Shown here in pieces: positions 33,416 to 58,136 of a DNA stretch of 64,000 nt. The position numbers and the translations under genes were made by a program. Under the pieces are notes generated by a model. The model was not told the DNA's origin, searched no databases, and saw only the letters and a list, made by a program, of their open reading frames with translations. Source of the stretch: a phage; the sequence record PZ445488.1; one strand, 5' to 3'. Position 1 is the first letter of the stretch, and every line of letters begins with the position of its first letter.

Positions 33416-33450
33416 GGTCTATAATATCATGTTTGAAGCAAAAGTAAACT
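33416..33450 (-). promoter_or_regulatory. early promoter for motA with MotA-box-like TGCTTCA in spacer; copy A of a duplicated promoter/leader
   Basis: GTTTACttttGCTTCAaacatgaTATTATAG on minus strand; duplicated at 33737..33771. Confidence 0.5.
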
Positions 33451-33736: not shown

Positions 33737-33771
33737 GGTCTATAATATCATGTTTGAAGCACATGTAAACT
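33737..33771 (-). promoter_or_regulatory. early promoter, copy B of duplicated promoter/leader
   Basis: GTTTACatgtGCTTCAaacatgaTATTATAG on minus strand. Confidence 0.5.
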
Positions 33772-36307: not shown

Positions 36308-36340
36308 CTACTATACCATAATCCTATCGTGATGTAAACA
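36308..36340 (-). promoter_or_regulatory. T4-type early promoter
   Basis: GTTTAC-N18-TATAGT on minus strand. Confidence 0.45.
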
Positions 36341-36818: not shown

Positions 36819-36852
36819 ACTACTATATCATAGTCCTACTTAGTTGTAAACA
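36819..36852 (-). promoter_or_regulatory. T4-type early promoter
   Basis: GTTTAC and TATAGT-like -10 on minus strand. Confidence 0.45.
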
Positions 36853-42295: not shown

Positions 42296-44114
42296 AGGAC
42301 ATCCATTCTTTACGAAGTTCTGAATCATCACCCAACAACATTTCAAAGAGTTCTTTCCAATTTTCAGGAAGTTTAACTACGTCGTACACAGGGTTCTGAA
42401 TCATTTCACGATACTCTGACTTTTCAAGGGAGCCCAATCCCTTGATGTATCGAATACTATGCTTAGGCAGCGTATCTTTAACTTCTTCATACTCAGCTAC
42501 AGTATAAAACCATTTTTGAGTTTTGCCAATTTGTGCAATAATTACAGGTGTTTTAACAAAGCGAATACGTCCTTGTTCAAACAATTCAGGCCAATTACTA
42601 AAGAAAGCAAGCAAAGCAGGATAAATACTTCCAAGGCCGTCATGATCGGCATCGGTCATAATTGCAATATTACGATAGTTCGTATTCTCTGCCTTTTCAC
42701 CAAGAATAAGACCTGTGATAGCACAGATATCAAAGAGCTCTTTGTTCTTCATCATATCAGCATATGACATACCCCAGCTATTCATCACCTTACCACGTAA
42801 TGGGAATCCGCCGTGTAGTTCACGGTCACGAACATCAATGAGATAACCAATTGCCGAATCACCTTCTGTTAAGAACAATGTCGTATCTGCATCTTTACCA
42901 CATTGGTTAGCTTTAATATGCTTATGAACCTTAGCTTTAGTTGCCTTTTTAGCTGCTTTAGTTTCTGCGGCCTTTTCTGCTGCCAATTTACGAGCTAATG
43001 CTGCTTCAATTATAGGCATTAAAACTGCTTCAGAATTCAAAATATTTTTTGCCAATTTTTTGGTATCTAATTTAATATGCGTCCGAATTTCGCCATAAGG
43101 ACTTGTTAAACGCTCTTTGGTTTGGGAATCAAAACGAAGGTTCTTCATTCCACGAACGAACATTAAGAGAGTGAGACATTCCTTGATGCGCGCTTTAGTC
43201 ACGTCGATTTTATATTTGCGTTTAATAGCCGGAATTAATTCTTCGCAAATGTCGTCCATCACACATTCAATGTGATGACCGCCATTTTTGGTATGGATGT
43301 TATTAACATAAGTTAAATGACGGAAGCCATCTGGTGACCGACCAATGGCAATAGAGCATCCATCTTGTTCTTGAATGACGGTCTCTTCATCAAATTGTTT
43401 AGCAAACTTCTTAAAGTTACCTTTAATCCTTTTGCCATTAAATTTAAATTCAATACCAGGATAAACGACTGCCAATGTTTGGAGCCGGTCTATAGTAATA
43501 TCTTGGTATATTTTTTCAAATTGATTCATTTCAAAATGAGAGAAATCAGGAATAAACTCGACCTTAGTCCCGTTGTTTTTAGACGGCTTAGATTTCCAAG
43601 AAATATTATCAGCATTATTAGAACAATTAACTGTCAATTCGTTTTTACCATCTGAAGTAGTGCCAACAAAAGAGACAGAAAAAATATTTGTTAATGAAGA
43701 ACCGACACCGTTTTGTCCACCCGTAACACGTTCTTTGTCGTCACCAAAGTTGCCACCAGCTTTTGTACGTGTCCACGCCGCAACTGGTCCTGGAATTTCT
43801 TCTCCTTCAGGAGTAATAACTGTTTCTTGAGGAATACCTCGTCCATTATCTTCAACAGTCACTTTATTAGAATTTAAATCAATACTAACAGAAATTTTAT
43901 TAGCATATTTGAAATTGGTTCGAATAGCTTCATCTACCGAGTTGTCAATAATTTCATCAATTAATTTGAGAACACCTGCAACATATTTAACCTTTTTAAA
44001 TTCACCGAATAGGAAACGTTCTTGTTCTTCATTGGCAACACTTCCAATATACATGCCAGGACGCTTCAAACAATGCTCTTTATCAGATAGCATTTCAATT
44101 TTATTATCAATCAT
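42294..44114 (-). CDS. 39: DNA topoisomerase II large subunit, fused 39/60 form; start set at MIDNKIEM
   Basis: 606 aa continuous ORF; GyrB-like ATPase and Toprim regions; longer than T4 gp39 alone, consistent with the unsplit form. Confidence 0.9.
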   Translation of the reverse strand: MIDNKIEMLSDKEHCLKRPGMYIGSVANEEQERFLFGEFKKVKYVAGVLKLIDEIIDNSVDEAIRTNFKYANKISVSIDLNSNKVTVEDNGRGIPQETVITPEGEEIPGPVAAWTRTKAGGNFGDDKERVTGGQNGVGSSLTNIFSVSFVGTTSDGKNELTVNCSNNADNISWKSKPSKNNGTKVEFIPDFSHFEMNQFEKIYQDITIDRLQTLAVVYPGIEFKFNGKRIKGNFKKFAKQFDEETVIQEQDGCSIAIGRSPDGFRHLTYVNNIHTKNGGHHIECVMDDICEELIPAIKRKYKIDVTKARIKECLTLLMFVRGMKNLRFDSQTKERLTSPYGEIRTHIKLDTKKLAKNILNSEAVLMPIIEAALARKLAAEKAAETKAAKKATKAKVHKHIKANQCGKDADTTLFLTEGDSAIGYLIDVRDRELHGGFPLRGKVMNSWGMSYADMMKNKELFDICAITGLILGEKAENTNYRNIAIMTDADHDGLGSIYPALLAFFSNWPELFEQGRIRFVKTPVIIAQIGKTQKWFYTVAEYEEVKDTLPKHSIRYIKGLGSLEKSEYREMIQNPVYDVVKLPENWKELFEMLLGDDSELRKEWMS

Positions 44115-44790
44115 TAGATTTTCTCTCAAATTGCATGACTATATTTTTGTATGAACCTTCCGGAAATCCACGTTTAACGCTTTCTTTAGCAAATTTACCG
44201 ACCTTTGGTTTATCCAATTCTAACCATAATTTATATAAAGAAGATTCATATTCCCATACAGGACTTTTACGATTTTTAAGCCCACACTTTATAAGCGCTT
44301 CCTTTGTATGTTTCTTATTATAAAATGGATTGTTTTTGCCACTCATTGCTTTAGAATGTTCAGGGCGCTTAATTCCATACATCGGATTAAGATCGCCTTT
44401 CTTGATAATTGATTGTAGTTCAATAGTTTCTTCAGAGTGATTGTGTCCATAAAATGGATTTAACTCTTTTGAAACATCCATACCAAAGCACCCATCGACT
44501 GTGGCATAAGACATGTTGAAAAATTTTTCAGATTTAACCACATTATGCAATTTCTGGTAATACAACTCACAAAACGTCGCTTCTTCACGTGTATCAAATT
44601 CGCCAATAATACATGAATCAAATAAATGAGGATTATCTTTTATCTCTTTATCATAAATTTGTTTATATTTTTTCGACTTTACCGTACCATGATAGTAACT
44701 GTTTGTATGTTTATCAAGATAAGTAGACCCTATATAAAACGGTGGCAACTTATCGCCTGTGTATATTGTTAAGTATGTTATGTATTTCAT
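44107..44790 (-). CDS. putative homing endonuclease-like protein (degenerate GIY-YIG N-terminus with NUMOD3-type repeats)
   Basis: 227 aa; N-terminal YLTIYTGDKLPPFYIGST; repeats NPFYGHNHSEETIE, NPMYGIKRPEHSKAMSGKNNPFYNKKHTKEA resemble NUMOD3 modules of Seg/Tev-type endonucleases. Confidence 0.5.
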   Translation of the reverse strand: MKYITYLTIYTGDKLPPFYIGSTYLDKHTNSYYHGTVKSKKYKQIYDKEIKDNPHLFDSCIIGEFDTREEATFCELYYQKLHNVVKSEKFFNMSYATVDGCFGMDVSKELNPFYGHNHSEETIELQSIIKKGDLNPMYGIKRPEHSKAMSGKNNPFYNKKHTKEALIKCGLKNRKSPVWEYESSLYKLWLELDKPKVGKFAKESVKRGFPEGSYKNIVMQFERKSND

Positions 44791-44837: not shown

Positions 44838-45260
44838 TTATTTAAATTTAATTTTCTGAAGTGCATCAATTGCAGCCAGACGCCCTTGTTCACTTTTAAC
44901 TGTAATGACCACATCACCTGATACGATCACCGAACCATCAACAAATTCTATAGAGCCTTTTTTGAAATCAACTGACGTAGGTTCCGGAACTTCTTCAAAG
45001 AATTTAAATTCTGCACCATAAAGCAGAATATCACCTTGCATACTATGAATAGTTCGGCCATAATCGCCTACGGCTTCTACAGCAATAACCGAAACGCCGT
45101 AACCAATCATCTCTTCCACAATAAAATCTTTGGACAATAAAGTAGTATGCAGATTAGTATTAAGACGTTTACCAGTCGTATTAAGAATTCTCAAGAAATT
45201 ATCTTCTTGTCCTTTGATAATACGATATTTCTTACCAACTTCAAAACCTTTAAAAGCCAT
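44838..45260 (-). CDS. hypothetical protein
   Basis: 140-aa ORF. Confidence 0.45.
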   Translation of the reverse strand: MAFKGFEVGKKYRIIKGQEDNFLRILNTTGKRLNTNLHTTLLSKDFIVEEMIGYGVSVIAVEAVGDYGRTIHSMQGDILLYGAEFKFFEEVPEPTSVDFKKGSIEFVDGSVIVSGDVVITVKSEQGRLAAIDALQKIKFK

Positions 45261-45447: not shown

Positions 45448-45876
45448 TTATTCCTTAAAATGTGCTTTCAACATTTGATACAAAGACCATGCCTGGTCGT
45501 TATTTTTGATAGTAATCGTCATCACCGGAAATTCAGACAATTCGTCAAGTTCACCAGAATCTTGCTCTTCGGACGCTTGATACGGATTTCCAACTTCATC
45601 AAAAAACTCTGCTTCATTCGTGGAGAGCCAGATAAAGTTTTCATCAAGGATATCACCACCTGTCGCGTATCCAACCATGCCAGTAGATGTCACAATTTTA
45701 GTAGGACGACCAAGATGGTCAACATCTAATACTTTAAATGGTTCCATGCCAAGACGTCGTGCATAAATCCCATTATCGGTGTGGTCCTTAATAAACTCTT
45801 CTTGGGCACGTTTATCTTTAAATTGGTACCACGAGTTAACGCGGAATTTATTAGCCATTAGTAAGTTTCCTTCCAA
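45448..45876 (-). CDS. hypothetical protein
   Basis: 142-aa ORF, acidic C-terminal region. Confidence 0.45.
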
Positions 45877-46130
45877 TAAGTTGTACCGTTTTCAGTGATT
45901 TCACGGAAGATACCGTAGATAGGCATTTCATCACCGAGTTTTTCGTAAACGTAAACCACTTCAGTGTAGCATAAAAATCCGGTCCAGTTTTTCTGTACAA
46001 CAACTAAATCAGGATTAAACAGAACATCTTCAAACTCATCGATGTTTGAATCAGTAGTTACGTTTTTAATGATTTGACGTTTCATAATATTCTCCTCTTG
46101 TTTTGATAGGTCTATAGTATCATAGACCAT
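45858..46130 (-). CDS. hypothetical protein
   Basis: 90-aa ORF. Confidence 0.4.
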
Positions 46131-46142
46131 AGTTGTTGTACA

Positions 46143-46667
46143 TCATTTTAGCAAAATAAAATCAACTTGTTCTGCCAATGAACGTCTAAACATTAATTGA
46201 CAACTTCCGAGGATGAAATCAGGTGCTTCATAGACCGCGATGTAGTATCCTTTAGCTTTCAAGAGTTCAACATCCACCTGGTCATCAAACCATGCATAAA
46301 CCGCGTCAACGCTTTCAAATCCAAAATAGAACCCTTGAGCCCAATCTTCACTCAATTCAAATGTGTACTCAATTCTATGGTATCTTAAGATATTTTGTTC
46401 AAGAAGTTTGTCTTCATTTACTGTAGGACGATTAGGGACATTATAGTTGTCGCCGTGATGGTAGAAGTTACCTGAGAGTATTCCATGCTTATCAAGGAAC
46501 TCCCATGTTTCTTCAGAGTTGTCAGTGCCAGACCAACCGTAAGGTGAGCGAGGTTCTTTATTCCAAGAGGTTTCCCAAATTCTGACGGCTTTACCGTCTT
46601 CGATAACAATTCCTGGTAATGATTCACGTTGAGTACAAAAACTACGTTCTACGCGGTAAACTAACAT
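46143..46667 (-). CDS. hypothetical protein
   Basis: 174-aa ORF, no motif recognised. Confidence 0.45.
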   Translation of the reverse strand: MLVYRVERSFCTQRESLPGIVIEDGKAVRIWETSWNKEPRSPYGWSGTDNSEETWEFLDKHGILSGNFYHHGDNYNVPNRPTVNEDKLLEQNILRYHRIEYTFELSEDWAQGFYFGFESVDAVYAWFDDQVDVELLKAKGYYIAVYEAPDFILGSCQLMFRRSLAEQVDFILLK

Positions 46668-46726
46668 ATTATTCTCCTCTGGTTGATATGGTTATAATAT
46701 CAAAACCAGAGGAGAAGTAAACAACT

Positions 46727-47146
46727 TTATGCGAAAGCAGCTGGGCTATATTTTTTAATTTGGAATTCAGGAACTACCATGAACTGACCAGCGAAAACGA
46801 TGTTATAAAGCTTAACACCATCTTCTACCCAACGGTCGCTAATAAATCCGGCGATTTGCTTAGTTTTCCATGGCGTTCCATCAGTTGCCGCAGCAATAGT
46901 GAATTCATGGTCTTTTTCAACAGAAACTGATCTGCATAGTCCCCATTTGAACGCTTTTTCTTCTGGCTCAATGAACTGGCTTGAGACGTAGCCAATATTA
47001 CCATTAGCATCACGAACTTTAACTTGGTTACGACCAAAAACCGGATCACTCACAGAAAGAACTTCAACCAACTTCCCGGCAACTTTAGAGCGAGAAGCAA
47101 CAGATACATATACGTAATCACCTGTAGAGAGATTTACAATATTCAT
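46727..47146 (-). CDS. paralogue family member 1 (unknown function)
   Basis: 139 aa; shares SRSKVAGKLVEV and C-terminal FISDRWVEDGVKLYNIVFAG motifs with the next two ORFs. Confidence 0.55.
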   Translation of the reverse strand: MNIVNLSTGDYVYVSVASRSKVAGKLVEVLSVSDPVFGRNQVKVRDANGNIGYVSSQFIEPEEKAFKWGLCRSVSVEKDHEFTIAAATDGTPWKTKQIAGFISDRWVEDGVKLYNIVFAGQFMVVPEFQIKKYSPAAFA

Positions 47147-47155
47147 AATAATTCC

Positions 47156-47641
47156 TTAAGCTTTACGAGGAGACACATAGCGAGTGATTTCAGATTCTTT
47201 AACAACTCTGAAGTCACCTAAGAATATGATATTGTATAACTTTTCACCATCTTCAACCCATTGGTCACTAATGAAGCCGCACATAGTATCAGTTTTGCTT
47301 GGATAACCGTATTCATCGATGAAGTCAAATTCTTTATCAGTCTGGAATTCAACGCCTTTGCAAAGGGCCCATTTGAACTGTACATTATGCTCTGTGGATT
47401 CAACTTTTTCTCTTGAAGCAAAAGCACTACTCACAGGCGTTTCCAAGAACTTTGCACGAACATAAGCAAATTTGGTTTCCTGTGTCCCAAAACTAGGAAT
47501 AATACGAACTTTTACCTCAGAATCTTCATCTTTAACGCCTTCTTTAAGTTGAATACTTACAACTTCGACCAATTTTCCTGCGGCTTTAGAACGAGATTTG
47601 TTAGATACGCGAACGATTTCACCAATAATACCAAGATTCAT
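47156..47641 (-). CDS. paralogue family member 2; start set at MNLGIIGEI
   Basis: 161 aa; SRSKAAGKLVEV ... FISDQWVEDGEKLYNIIFLGDF; promoter lies inside the longer ORF-track version. Confidence 0.55.
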   Translation of the reverse strand: MNLGIIGEIVRVSNKSRSKAAGKLVEVVSIQLKEGVKDEDSEVKVRIIPSFGTQETKFAYVRAKFLETPVSSAFASREKVESTEHNVQFKWALCKGVEFQTDKEFDFIDEYGYPSKTDTMCGFISDQWVEDGEKLYNIIFLGDFRVVKESEITRYVSPRKA

Positions 47642-47668
47642 AATTTCTCTCTCTTTGTTTAAATTGAA

Positions 47669-47700
47669 TTCATTATACTCCATCCATCCTTGGATATACA
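47669..47700 (-). promoter_or_regulatory. early-type promoter (TGTATA-N17-TATAAT) for paralogue 2
   Basis: shares core attatactcca-ccatccttgg with 48228..48260. Confidence 0.45.
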
Positions 47701-47703
47701 ACA

Positions 47704-48198
47704 TTAATTAAGGATATTAACCACAGCACTACGTGGAACTACACTAAAATCACCTGCATGAACAACGTTCAGAAGTTCAACACCGTCTTCAATCCACTGG
47801 TCAGTTACCCATCCATTTACTGGACCTGCGAACGGGCGTCGAATTGAAACATATTTACACAGCAAATCAGTAGGCTCAATAGGCTTAATCAGAGTACCGT
47901 ACATACAAGCGATATCCATATCAATACAGATGTCTTTAACGGGTTCTACTTCTTCAATCAACAGTTCAAAGTCTGTGCTTGGAAGGGCGGTAGTAGAAAT
48001 TGTACCATATGAATTTTTAATTTCTAAGAATAACCAAGGGCCTTCAGCTTGTTTGATGAAGTTAACAATAGTGAAACTATTGCCTTGAGTGGCACCTAAA
48101 ATTTCACAAAACTTTTCGTAAGCTCGCACTGAAGCACTGTACCAGTTGATTTGTTTTTCGTCTTTCAGGATGTAAGTAGCCGTAGTATTGATATTCAT
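47704..48198 (-). CDS. paralogue family member 3
   Basis: 164 aa; C-terminal WVTDQWIEDGVELLNVVHAGDFSVVP matches the family motif. Confidence 0.5.
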   Translation of the reverse strand: MNINTTATYILKDEKQINWYSASVRAYEKFCEILGATQGNSFTIVNFIKQAEGPWLFLEIKNSYGTISTTALPSTDFELLIEEVEPVKDICIDMDIACMYGTLIKPIEPTDLLCKYVSIRRPFAGPVNGWVTDQWIEDGVELLNVVHAGDFSVVPRSAVVNILN

Positions 48199-48227
48199 AA
48201 TGTTTTTCCTGTTTGGTTAAGATAGAA

Positions 48228-48260
48228 AGATTATACTCCAACCATCCTTGGTTGTAAACT
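48228..48260 (-). promoter_or_regulatory. early promoter (GTTTAC-N18-TATAAT) for paralogue 3
   Basis: duplicated promoter segment. Confidence 0.45.
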
Positions 48261-48264
48261 GGTT

Positions 48265-48942
48265 TTATCGCTGTTTTACACTTATCGGGTCAGGATTCTC
48301 AGGGACATCTTCAAGGCCAAGCGCATAACGCTGAGCATATTTTAACATCAAAATATCTTTAGCACAATCGTGAATACTATCATGGGCAACGAATCCTTTT
48401 AGCGTACCCATCGGTAATGGACACATACTTAATCCTCGTGTCAACGAGTAAGCTTCGATTGCCGTACGAATATCACGTTGAGCCCAGAATTTAACAGGTT
48501 CTAATTTATCGGTATCAATATCTGGTTCAAGAACACCTTCATCACGATAGAGGTCACGAATCAAATCGACCAAGATCGGGAAGTCAAAGCTCATACCACG
48601 GCACCACATCTGTGATTTCCATTGGTCAACTTTATTAGCTCGACAATAATCTAAAAAGATTTTAATGCCTTCAAGCGTAGTGACATCGTCTTCAGACGGA
48701 GCCAGGTTTTTACGTGCTTCTGCTGATTGTTCTTTCCACCATTTCATAGTGGATTTAGCGAAAACTCGCTTCCCTTTTTGAGAAGCTAAATTAAATTTAA
48801 TTCGCTTACCTCGTTGAACAAGTTCTTCAAATGTTTCAACAACTTCAGGGTCGGAATTATATGCAATAACCGCAAGGTCAATAACAGCCGCTTTTGATGT
48901 ATTGCCGAATGTTTCAAAATCTATAATAACATCAGTGCTCAT
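48265..48942 (-). CDS. dexA: exonuclease A (DnaQ-like 3'-5' exonuclease)
   Basis: 225 aa; N-terminal IIDFETFG Exo I motif; syntenic before dda. Confidence 0.8.
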   Translation of the reverse strand: MSTDVIIDFETFGNTSKAAVIDLAVIAYNSDPEVVETFEELVQRGKRIKFNLASQKGKRVFAKSTMKWWKEQSAEARKNLAPSEDDVTTLEGIKIFLDYCRANKVDQWKSQMWCRGMSFDFPILVDLIRDLYRDEGVLEPDIDTDKLEPVKFWAQRDIRTAIEAYSLTRGLSMCPLPMGTLKGFVAHDSIHDCAKDILMLKYAQRYALGLEDVPENPDPISVKQR

Positions 48943-48951
48943 AATTTTCTC

Positions 48952-50265
48952 TCAAATAAAATGGACGTCAAAACGACCGCGAGTTGTGCCGACATACAAT
49001 AACTGTTTAGCTAATTCTGAATCAGCATAATGGATACACGGTGTATAAACAAAGGCCGTGTCAACAGACATACCCTGGGCCTTATGGAAGGTTGATACTG
49101 GTAGTGCCTTCACCTTAGTGAACATACGTTTAGCATCCCAGAATTCACTCCATGGAGCTTTACCACCTTTATTCCAGAATTTGTATGTTTCTGCTGTCTT
49201 AGCCAAAAACAAATTGAATTTATAAAGCTCTTCTTCAGAAGAAATAACCTTTATATCCTCGCGGACGTATTCTTCATCATCCACATATGTTTCTACTGTA
49301 AGATTCCAATATCGTATCATATACTCGCCTGAAACACCACGTGCTTTAACGAATGTAGACGTTTCTACAGCATCTCGAATACGAACGAATTGCCCGTTAT
49401 TGAAAAGCATTTCGGTCATATTTTTGCCATCTAGCTTATACGTCTTGGTAAACGGCTCTTGTAGAACAATGACCTCGTCTTTAATAAATGGTTTTTCTGT
49501 TTCGAGAAGTTTTCGGCGAATAATTGAATTCAACTTATCTACTGACTTATTTGTGAATGCCATCATTCGATTTTCGAAAAGGTCTTCAGGAGTTTTAACG
49601 ACGTTAAAATAGTTCATCATATACGATTTAAGGTCTGTATATCCATGAACACCGTGCCCATCAACTACTTTATCGTAAATCCATTTGCCATTACGAATAT
49701 CAGTCGCAACATCAATAATTGGTGCATTGCTACGTTTAACTTCTGTAAGGTTGCATTGCACGAAGTCTTTGTGAGTGAAGAAAGGACTTAGATACGCAGT
49801 TGATTCGCCTGGGTCTACCGGTCGAATTTGACATCGGTCGCCGATTCCAATTACTGTGCACCATTTAGGGATACTAGCTAACATTATTTTAAACAGAGAA
49901 CGGTCACACATTGACGCTTCATCAAATAACAGTACACGACACAAGGCTAAGTCGGGAACCTTTTTCTGTTCAAATAATACGTTTTCTTCGTATGTAGTTG
50001 GGTTGATTTTAAGAATGCTATGAATAGTCGATGCTTCTTGACCTGCAAGTTTGCTTAGAACCTTTTTAGCAGCGTGTGTAGGGGCTGCTAAAATAATACC
50101 TGATTCTCCAGAAGAAATAAGGGCTTCAACGATGAATCTAGTAAGGGTTGTTTTACCTGTACCAGCAGGCCCATTAATAGTTACGTGATGTTTCTTTTCT
50201 TTAATAGCTTTCATAACAACGTTGAAGGCGTTTTTCTGGCCTTCGGTCAAATCGTCAAATGTCAT
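48952..50265 (-). CDS. dda: Dda DNA helicase (SF1B)
   Basis: 437 aa; Walker A GPAGTGKTT, LLFDEASM, C-terminal VGTTRGR motifs. Confidence 0.9.
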   Translation of the reverse strand: MTFDDLTEGQKNAFNVVMKAIKEKKHHVTINGPAGTGKTTLTRFIVEALISSGESGIILAAPTHAAKKVLSKLAGQEASTIHSILKINPTTYEENVLFEQKKVPDLALCRVLLFDEASMCDRSLFKIMLASIPKWCTVIGIGDRCQIRPVDPGESTAYLSPFFTHKDFVQCNLTEVKRSNAPIIDVATDIRNGKWIYDKVVDGHGVHGYTDLKSYMMNYFNVVKTPEDLFENRMMAFTNKSVDKLNSIIRRKLLETEKPFIKDEVIVLQEPFTKTYKLDGKNMTEMLFNNGQFVRIRDAVETSTFVKARGVSGEYMIRYWNLTVETYVDDEEYVREDIKVISSEEELYKFNLFLAKTAETYKFWNKGGKAPWSEFWDAKRMFTKVKALPVSTFHKAQGMSVDTAFVYTPCIHYADSELAKQLLYVGTTRGRFDVHFI

Positions 50266-58073: not shown

Positions 58074-58136
58074 TTTAACTCCTTAGTTGATTTGATAGGA
58101 CTACTATACTATAGTCCATCTATAATGTAAACAAGT

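Follow-up and report, generated by a model that had tools for sequence, protein, structure and literature searches.

The motB.1, motB and motB-like early genes of an RB69-like phage and their duplicated promoter cassette

Three adjacent small genes whose products resemble each other, two of them preceded by the same promoter core, raise the question of which family they belong to, how they are expressed and exchanged among phages, and what they might do during infection. The window analyzed here, a 64-kb stretch of phage DNA (PZ445488.1), belongs to a Mosigvirus, an RB69-like T-even phage. A preliminary description placed the trio correctly, both in its coordinates and in assigning it to an early region: all three genes are on the minus strand, like all genes at this locus, and are situated between dexA and cef on the same strand, within the early, non-essential region from dexA to gene 39. 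The gene order, dda-dexA-motB.1-motB-motB-like-motB.2-cef, is that of RB69, PhAPEC2 and OLB35 and is comparable with that of T4; ORF3, ORF2 and ORF1 are the motB.1, motB and motB-like early genes, previously described, of RB69-type (T4-like) phages (Table 1). The next gene, ORF0, matches phrog_1106 and gave no match in Pfam; its name notwithstanding, this MotB.2 homolog has no sequence relationship to the MotB family.

Table 1. Coordinates in the window of the motB-family genes, their promoters and the associated repeats.
Feature	Coordinates	Strand	Evidence
P1, preceding ORF3; canonical early promoter of T4 type, GTTTAC(A)-17/18-TATAAT	48230..48259	-	11/12 sigma-70 consensus
48-nt cassette copy B	48209..48256	-	Repeat search, 75% identity to copy A
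ORF3, MotB.1 ortholog, 164 aa	47704..48198	-	PF17613 35.3 bits; phrog_2333 E=1.3e-82
P2, second core copy (putative promoter), upstream of ORF2	47672..47702	-	Perfect -10 TATAAT, weak -35 TGTATA
48-nt cassette copy A (promoter spacer, -10, 5'UTR)	47651..47698	-	Repeat search, 75% identity, spacing 558 nt
ORF2, MotB ortholog, 161 aa	47156..47641	-	PF17613 E=2e-53, 181 bits
ORF1, second MotB-like copy, 139 aa	46727..47146	-	PF17613 75.6 bits; phrog_1671 E=6.6e-51
Hairpin cassette upstream of the motB.2 homolog (ORF0), at the downstream end of the trio	46672..46722	-	dG -25.5 kcal/mol, z=-6.8
ORF0, MotB.2 homolog, 174 aa	46143..46667	-	33% identity to T4 MotB.2, E=2e-15

The products of the three genes all score above the gathering cut-off of Pfam PF17613 (motB), which is 25 bits for the whole protein, and PHROG 1671 and 2333 represent the same family. 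ORF1 and ORF2 share 42% identity over 153 aa (E=4e-29), and the match of ORF3 to ORF2 and ORF1 is limited to the last 29-36 residues, with 42-55% identity (E=4e-10 and 1e-10, respectively); a profile-profile comparison of the two subfamilies (hhalign) gave a probability of 99.9% (E=1e-32). The pairwise alignments thus bear out the earlier proposal of three tandem paralogs and the significance of their motif similarity, although the motifs differ in their distribution: the C-terminal one is present in all three products, whereas SRSK-AGKLVEV is found in ORF1 and ORF2 and is missing from ORF3, which has a different N-terminal domain. Membership of a known housekeeping family had been named as an outcome that would speak against the proposal; the family is indeed a known one, MotB, but not a housekeeping one.

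Each protein consists of two small beta-barrel domains and a disordered linker. The C-terminal barrel is common to all three and contains in each case the core D-x-W-x-E-D-G-x-x-L-x-N-V-V, within the shared motif G-[FWY]-[IV]-[ST]-D-x-W-[VI]-E-D-G-x-x-L-x-N-[IV]-[IV]. An HMM of this domain identified exactly three copies in the whole 64 kb, those of ORF1, ORF2 and ORF3, and no additional ones. When sought beyond the T4-like phages, the domain yielded 28 matches among 1.84 billion representatives, two of which, long bacterial repeat proteins, were discarded as false positives, and the family is limited to 26 small phage-type clusters. Sequence searches of solved structures returned nothing beyond a match to staphylokinase (E=0.59), which we attribute to chance, and the matches among predicted viral structures (BFVD) were exclusively T4-like relatives of unknown function. 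The common C-terminal domain of MotB and MotB.1, and the presence in RB69 of two motB genes plus motB.1, have already been published (PMC7827196 for the RB69 gene set). The identity of the trio, its shared domain and its RB69-type arrangement are, then, already known and carry little weight as a discovery; the by-products of the analysis are useful for work on T4 early genes.

ORF2 is 57% identical to T4 MotB (E=2e-59), and the homology begins at the ATG at position 47641, which is preceded by a GAGAGAG ribosome binding site. The KOW-like N-terminal domain of the MotB family (SRSKAAGKLVEV) is present in ORF2 and ORF1, followed in ORF2 by a disordered linker (aa 70-85) and the C-terminal beta-barrel (AF2 model, pLDDT 79.6), whereas in ORF1 the linker that leads to the common C-terminal domain is short. 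The N-terminal domain of ORF2 has a pI of 9.45; the whole protein, however, has a pI of 5.6 and a net charge of -2, against 9.2 and +6 for T4 MotB. Because ORF2 is much less basic, it may not coat DNA strongly and non-specifically, and the DNA-coating model of T4 MotB should not be transferred to the window ortholog without a test. ORF1 starts 9 nt past the stop codon of ORF2 and has no promoter of its own. Sequences of its subtype, at >=80% identity, occur in 208 of 761 phage records, with none between 60% and 80%; the subtype is a discrete clade, identities being either at least 80% or below 60%.

ORF3 contains a GoF/LSm-like N-terminal domain (aa 1-85), a disordered linker (86-108) and a MotB-type C-terminal beta-barrel (109-164). 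In the AF2 model (pLDDT 78.5) the N-terminal domain has strands at residues 8-11, 42-49, 55-61, 67-73 and 80-83, with a pLDDT of about 85, and hhalign aligned it with GoF over 76 columns with a probability of 80% (E=1.4e-5). There is, therefore, moderate support for homology of this five-stranded antiparallel beta domain to the N-terminal domain of GoF, in line with PMC12152347. The protein is acidic (pI 4.5, net charge -9) and is 37% identical to the reference MotB.1 of T4 and 46% identical to that of resequenced T4. The reference T4 protein (119 aa) represents a 143-aa protein cut short by a frameshift, and the RB69 reference motB.1 is split by two extra bases into 132 aa and 29 aa, whereas motB.1 is one intact ORF in the window; the 119-aa MotB.1 of T4 and the 29-aa peptide of RB69 are frameshift artifacts of one intact gene. 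These artifacts affect the reading of the published "Category 3" class and of the published MotB.1 experiments. In the published list, RB69 is credited with a pair of motB genes, a single motB.1 and a 29-aa peptide (PMC7827196). For T4, deletion of motB.1 caused no phenotype and MotB.1 had no effect in an RNA reporter assay (PMC12152347), the construct for which followed the reference annotation that we found to be truncated.

As the preliminary description had noticed, the genes for ORF3 and ORF2 are preceded by the same promoter core. Both contain a 22-mer with 21 specified bases, CCAAGGATGGNTGGAGTATAAT (minus strand, 47672-47693 and 48230-48251), which is found nowhere else in the window, even allowing three mismatches, and for which 0 chance matches are expected. 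P1 is the best sigma-70 match in the 44-51 kb region, one of the 14 GTTTAC-type promoters of the window, and is conserved in seven Mosigvirus loci. The -35 hexamer of P2 (4/6) adjoins the stop codon of ORF3. The P1 and P2 spacers are identical at 16 of 18 positions, the joint highest value among the 78 pairs of early promoters in the window, for which the median is 7. The 48-nt duplication, the largest direct repeat in 44-51 kb, comprises promoter, 5'UTR and ribosome binding site, and is an ordinary T4-type early-promoter cassette. Given its poor -35, P2 is a putative promoter, and conservation of its core could alternatively reflect processing by RegB.

The minus strand showed no terminator-like site in the interval 46700-48260. 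The P1 and P2 intergenic RNAs did not fold better than shuffled sequences (z = 0.26 and 1.22), and the search for known RNA families gave only a sub-threshold match to Y RNA (26 bits versus a threshold of 38). A 5-bp hairpin (AACCA/TGGTT versus ATCCA/TGGAT) seems at first to show a compensatory change, but gene conversion accounts for it better, since AV110 has a P1-type P2 and a mismatched P1. A MotA-box middle promoter was also rejected, the single weak GCTT...TAnnnT match at the ORF2/ORF1 junction being unconvincing. The hairpin cassette upstream of ORF0 contains an early promoter (GTTTAC-17-TATTAT) with its -10 in the loop, and its 3' arm holds the ribosome binding site, or RegB-like site, GGAGAATAATA; hairpins of this architecture, but with another stem sequence, occur in T4, SA21RB and RB69.

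Relatives of the phage illustrate how the duplicated cassette recombines. In JM17, motB lies directly after dexA, ORF3 is absent and there is one chimeric P1/P2 cassette; dexA-motB junctions of this type, lacking motB.1, occur in about 20 of 166 related phage records (ca. 12%), and these Mosigvirus records retain both KOW-type copies. In AV110, the spacer of P2 has been converted to the P1 type. Comparison of these sequences shows the P1/P2 cassette to be a substrate for homologous recombination, in which recombination between the copies removes or adds motB.1, and, together with the conserved C-terminal domain, an anchor for the exchange of motB alleles. With motB.1 situated between P1 and P2, the locus is a clean natural example of gene loss via cassette recombination. 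The values of dN/dS for the three genes (0.13, 0.22 and 0.13) exclude positive selection: selection is purifying, and not diversifying as had been supposed for the family. Relative to the genes on either side, dS is elevated 3-4-fold in ORF2 and ORF1, matching their raised divergence, and a patch at 47380-47680 shows 43-85% identity to other Mosigviruses and 85-86% to T4. The divergence of ORF2 and ORF1 maps to this patch and comes from mosaic exchange with T4-type alleles.

We consider it probable that the locus comprises a MotB-family trio that is expressed early, includes proteins functioning like T4 MotB and possesses a recombining promoter cassette. Since there is no terminator between the genes, transcription from P1 would run through all three, and the weaker, internal P2 would boost ORF2 and the translationally coupled ORF1. 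By analogy with T4 MotB, ORF2, and probably ORF1, would be made in quantity in the first minutes of infection; their basic KOW domain would bind DNA without sequence specificity, and they may change the placement of H-NS/StpA on DNA, leading to a better phage yield. ORF3 probably has a different role exerted via its LSm-like head, and its shared C-terminal barrel could engage the same partner or mediate self-association. We infer the function of the trio from that of T4 MotB, a DNA-binding protein that is abundant early in infection and remodels H-NS. DNA compaction by MotB is also said to have been described by Son et al. in NAR in 2021 (as cited in PMC12152347 and PMC13096335). T4 MotB, the characterized member, is toxic, co-purifies with H-NS/StpA, binds DNA non-specifically, alters H-NS footprints and doubles the burst size (PMC6070864, PMC7827196), and a role in host takeover, as had been suggested, fits these properties.

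The repeated core also lends itself to a reading at the RNA level. The T4 motB mRNA serves as a model substrate for RegB, which cleaves it in the GGAG of the leader GGAGUAUAAAA (PMC1702504), and the mapped cleavage site in this leader resembles, and aligns with, the GGAGTATAAT part of P2. On this reading, the main reason for conservation of the core GGAGTATAAT would be cleavage of read-through early mRNA by the RegB/S1 endoribonuclease, leading to post-transcriptional shut-off of the genes, and at least P2 would not be a promoter; the weak -35 of P2 is in its favor, yet we regard this as unlikely. RegB/S1 sites are characterized by an unstructured intergenic GGAG and by an A-rich tail of 7 nt, in which positions 6, 8 and 11 are A and C does not occur (GGAGAAUAAAA; PMC1702504). 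Both cores score 8/11 against GGAGAAUAAAA, but at position 11, where A is favored and C excluded, P1 has C and P2 has G; the ribosome binding sites of ORF0 (GGAGAATAATA) and cef score 10/11 and 9/11. Moreover, the GTTTAC -35 of P1 is perfect and properly spaced, P1 has the sigma-70 match given in Table 1, the TATAAT hexamer, correctly distanced from AT-rich DNA upstream, looks like a -10, and the roles of RegB site and promoter are compatible.

Other readings concern the proteins. The C-terminal domain common to all three, the same architecture of ORF1 and ORF2 and the reported high abundance of MotB (PMC7827196) would agree with a simple amplification of dosage, in which three redundant DNA-coating nucleoid proteins only raise MotB activity. 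This is very improbable in view of the unrelated N-terminal domain and the acidity of ORF3, of the low identity of ORF1 and ORF2, of the purifying selection that maintains each subtype, of the discreteness of the ORF1 clade, and of the relatives that lost motB.1 and kept both KOW-type copies. That one or more of the genes, most likely that for ORF3/MotB.1, encode an anti-defense or RNA-directed factor whose LSm-like head acts on RNA or on a host immune protein is highly improbable: the N-terminal domain of ORF3 does fall within the GoF/Frd.2 LSm-like family (PMC12152347), a GoF mutant stabilizes an mRNA, ORF3 is acidic, and the presence of motB.1 varies among close relatives, as often occurs with accessory counter-defense genes, but the published MotB.1 results were negative, albeit with a construct that followed the truncated annotation, no homolog has a known anti-defense role and the family is confined to few, small phage-type clusters. 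No evidence was found for the anti-defense role raised in the preliminary description. Finally, the C-terminal barrel might be a Tudor/SH3-like docking or oligomerization module bringing interchangeable heads (KOW in ORF1 and ORF2, LSm in ORF3) to a common target or into mixed nucleoid oligomers; the trio would then be a combinatorial "chromatin toolkit", with recombination in the promoter cassettes and at the C-terminal domain boundary resetting its composition, and the null results with MotB.1 would stem in part from a truncated ORF without the module. We think this quite unlikely to hold, and retain the T4-MotB-like early trio as the preferred explanation.

Compared with T4 MotB (PF17613), ORF2 is alike in length, two-domain layout, genomic neighborhood and early promoter, but is far less basic, and its 5' half is a T4-like mosaic patch within an RB69-like gene; ORF1 is a paralog of the same layout with a much shorter linker, and has no counterpart in T4. 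The H-NS antagonists gp5.5 of T7 and Arn of T4 share the proposed outcome, an early relief or alteration of H-NS action, although they bind H-NS directly, whereas MotB reaches it only through DNA (PMC7827196), and they have no relationship to MotB in sequence or fold. The motB cluster of RB69 (NC_004928: RB69p010, p011, p012 and p013) agrees exactly with the window in gene order and in its P1/P2 cassettes, but the N-terminal half of the window motB is T4-like and not RB69-like. ORF3 is an ortholog of T4 MotB.1, of the GoF/MotB.1/Frd.2 LSm-like family (PMC12152347), with a GoF-type five-stranded N-terminal and a MotB-type C-terminal domain. Both genes adjoin motB; that for ORF3 follows dexA directly and has its own promoter, P1, whereas T4 motB.1 follows motB.2 and lacks a promoter, and the linker of ORF3 carries an insert of roughly 20 aa (IDMDIACMYGTLIKP) that T4 MotB.1 does not have.

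Recombination at early-promoter cassettes has already been published for the promoter-early stem-loops, or PeSLs (PMC2839356, PMC4122927), which give rise to excised mini-circles during infection (PMC2839356). The sequence TTTACW-N17-TAYWAT, followed by a ribosome binding site and ATG, which characterizes PeSL promoters, is matched in full by P1, and by P2 with a perfect -10 and a 4/6 -35. The stem-loop that defines PeSLs is not significant in P1 and P2, and is present in the cassette upstream of motB.2. PeSLs are likewise repeated cassettes of early promoter and ribosome binding site, placed on either side of a variable ORF within a hyperplastic region; as here, one chimeric cassette remains in relatives without the ORF, the crossover lying between -10 and ribosome binding site.

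The tandem paralogy proposed in the preliminary description is real: ORF1 and ORF2 align over their full length (42% identity, E=4e-29), and the match of ORF3 to the other two is confined to the last 29-36 residues (E=1e-10 and 4e-10). The C-terminal motifs described as common are present in all three products, but SRSK-AGKLVEV occurs only in ORF1 and ORF2. The three ORFs pass the cut-off for Pfam motB (PF17613), the ORF3 and ORF2 families match in a profile-profile comparison (probability 99.9%, E=1e-32), and an HMM of the shared C-terminal domain identified these three ORFs, and no others, in the 64-kb window. ORF2 is the MotB orthologue (57% identity to T4 MotB, E=2e-59); ORF3, belonging to phrog_2333 and with 37-46% identity to T4 MotB.1, is the MotB.1 orthologue; and ORF1 is a second MotB-like gene missing from T4, found at an identity of at least 80% in 208 of 761 phage records, the remaining matches (<60%) being motB itself. 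The C-terminal domain family is narrow, with 28 cluster representatives at E=0.001 among 1.84 billion proteins; two of these, long bacterial repeat proteins, were discarded as false positives, and the others have 43-251 aa, with the domain placed by the alignment coordinates obtained at the C-terminal end or close to it. The MotB/MotB.1 content of the trio is already in the literature, and the gene identities agree with published work (Patterson-West et al., 2021; Kim et al.), which described a KOW-like N-terminal domain, a C-terminal domain common to MotB and MotB.1 and, in RB69, two motB genes, one motB.1 and a 29-aa peptide (Patterson-West et al., 2021; PMC7827196). Residues 92-106 of ORF3 (47881-47925, minus strand), in a disordered linker (pLDDT ~41), contain the short motif IDMDIACMYGTLIKP, which is absent from T4 MotB.1, recurs in other MotB.1 subfamilies after the KOW domain or N-terminally (e.g., IDFDVASMYGTLIKPLEIKE), and may be a mobile short linear motif.

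Two reference sequences contain frameshifts in motB.1. The T4 record NC_000866.4 has one extra G (ca. 2292-2320, GGATTGGAAGATGG versus GGATTGAAGATGG; cf. 2498-2929 in T4 OZ209023.1), so that the reference MotB.1 (119 aa) terminates with GRWR, most of the shared C-terminal domain being lost. This G is missing in 13/13 other T4, T4T, RB55 and RB59 records, where motB.1 encodes 143 aa; the corresponding protein P0011 is on 256 contigs. The 13.8-kDa monomer reported in published MotB.1 work has the size of the frameshift-truncated ORF. In RB69 (NC_004928.1, 3877-4373), the 164-aa gene is broken by two extra bases into RB69p013 (132 aa) and RB69p012 (29 aa). RB69p012 corresponds to the "29-aa Category 3 peptide" of PMC7827196 and is thus probably a reference artefact.

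Every gene in 44-51 kb lies on the minus strand, and a 2.9-kb stretch around the trio shows 98% identity to Escherichia phage OLB35 and 94% to PhAPEC2, both Mosigvirus (RB69 group, T-even phages). Gene order is exactly that annotated in RB69 and PhAPEC2, and differs from that of T4 (dda-dexA.2-dexA.1-dexA-motB.2-motB.1-motB-cef). The two goF-like paralogues (23% mutual identity) have an LSm-like N-terminal domain in common with ORF3, so that five genes in 3.4 kb are assembled from a small set of shuffled small-barrel modules. A 227-aa ORF (44107-44790, minus strand) located between the second goF-like gene and gene 39 resembles, by its NUMOD3 motifs and GIY-YIG-like N-terminus, a Seg-type homing endonuclease; this site has only ~64 nt in 7/7 related Mosigvirus loci examined, indicating an insertion specific to this phage lineage.

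Features of the motB region in transcription order, with promoters and substitution rates across eight Mosigvirus loci
Feature	Coordinates	Strand	Description	dN/dS	dS
dda	48952-50265	-	first in order		
dexA	48265-48942	-	after dda		
P1	48230-48259	-	canonical T4 early promoter; 11/12 sigma-70, best match of the region		
ORF3	47704-48198	-	MotB.1 orthologue, after dexA	0.13	0.12
P2	47672-47702	-	perfect -10; weak -35 abutting the ORF3 stop codon		
ORF2	47156-47641	-	MotB orthologue, after ORF3	0.22	0.44
ORF1	46727-47146	-	second MotB-like gene, after ORF2	0.13	0.35
ORF0	46143-46667	-	motB.2 homologue, after ORF1		
cef		-	after ORF0		
goF-like genes	45448-45858 and 44838-45260	-	two genes, after cef		
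Flanking genes				0.02-0.14	0.08-0.15

The duplicated promoter cores reported upstream of ORF3 and ORF2 were confirmed: the common 22-mer occurs solely at these two sites, with 0 expected by chance, and forms part of a 48-nt direct repeat with 75% identity; no larger direct repeat exists in 44-51 kb. The spacers of P1 and P2 are identical at 16/18 positions, a value not exceeded by any of the 78 GTTTAC-type promoter pairs of the window (median 7); the pair 33421-33449 / 33742-33770 matches just as closely, so near-identical early-promoter cassettes characterize this genome as a whole. Terminator-like sites were not found on the coding strand from 48260 to 46700, and ORF1 starts 9 nt past the ORF2 stop codon, which overlaps the ORF1 ribosome binding site. 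Given this organization, the canonical P1 and the weak -35 of P2, the trio is probably transcribed from P1 as a single early operon, with a boost from the internal P2. Many database records place the motB start at an upstream ATG overlapping the motB.1 stop (47642-47704), giving 172-175 aa, which would place P2 within the coding region; the ATG at 47641 (161 aa) is favoured by the ribosome binding site and by homology to T4 MotB.

T4 MotB is reported to be an abundant early protein, toxic when expressed alone, that binds modified or unmodified DNA without sequence specificity; H-NS and StpA co-purify with it via DNA, and it overrides the H-NS footprint at proV, raises the expression of part of the H-NS regulon and doubles the burst size (PMC6070864, PMC7827196). 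ORF2 is far less basic than T4 MotB (pI 5.6 vs. 9.2) but retains a basic KOW domain (pI 9.45), and ORF3 is acidic throughout (pI 4.5). By homology to T4 MotB, and with these charges taken into account, ORF2 is assigned a DNA-binding role with moderate confidence and ORF1 with lower confidence; ORF3 is expected to differ.

The earlier interpretation of the trio is partly right, in that an early host-takeover family fits, but the family is not diversifying in the sense of positive selection, with dN/dS of 0.13-0.22 for the three genes. The higher dS of ORF2 and ORF1 instead points to older alleles imported by recombination, as supported by sliding comparisons. Positions 47380-47680, corresponding to the 5′ half of motB (KOW domain and linker) and delimited by P2 and the N-/C-terminal domain boundary, show no more than 43-85% identity to other Mosigviruses, with 47501-47620 showing 85-86% identity to T4; ORF1 and the 3′ end of ORF2 match some of the Tequatroviruses at 75-95% identity, with no alignment in the flanks of these phages. 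Modules are thus exchanged by way of homology anchors provided by the promoter cassette and the conserved C-terminal domain.

The motB.2 homologue is preceded by a strong hairpin (46672-46722, minus strand; dG -25.5 kcal/mol, z=-6.8) containing an early promoter (GTTTAC-17-TATTAT), with the -10 within the loop, and a ribosome binding site and RegB-like site (GGAGAATAATA) in the 3′ arm. This ribosome binding site would be occluded in read-through transcripts but accessible in those begun within the hairpin. The layout is shared by T4, SA21RB and RB69, although their stem sequences differ, and it moves with motB.2 despite the different position of this gene in T4, where the upstream GGAU is a mapped site for the endoribonuclease RegB (PMC1702504). 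The translation-initiation region of cef (46083-46108) repeats, at 90% identity, the one in front of the motB.2 homologue (46665-46716), AAC[A/C]AGAGGAGAATA[T/A]TATG, and shows 95% complementarity to the 5′ arm of the upstream hairpin at a distance of 589 nt; their RegB-like GGAG sites score 9/11 (cef) and 10/11 (motB.2 homologue).

The repeated core could also have a double role, as -10 and as a processing site in read-through transcripts. The T4 motB mRNA is a classic RegB/S1 substrate, cut in its leader at GGAGUAUAAAA (PMC1702504), to which the P2 core GGAGTATAATG corresponds, scoring 8/11 against the RegB consensus.

Early promoters with near identity extending from the spacer to the twelfth transcribed base also form the groups 33421-33449 / 33742-33770 and 36310-36339 / 36822-36851 / 58103-58132; several of them have a stem bracketing the -10 (TAGGACTA...TAGTCCTA), and these groups are candidate cassettes of the PeSL (promoter-early stem-loop) type. 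In JM17 (Mosigvirus), motB directly follows dexA, and the only cassette between them matches P1 exactly as far as the -10, followed by a mostly P2-like 5′UTR with a short P1-like patch; this type of junction is present in ~20/166 related records, and in AV110 the P2 spacer is converted to the P1 type. Among PeSLs, an ORF that has a cassette on either side in one phage gives way in another to one chimeric cassette, whose crossover lies between the -10 and the ribosome binding site (Arbiol et al., 2010; Comeau et al., 2014). Unlike true PeSLs, P1 and P2 have no stem-loop; the P1/P2 locus nevertheless shows the same pattern of two cassettes versus one chimeric cassette.
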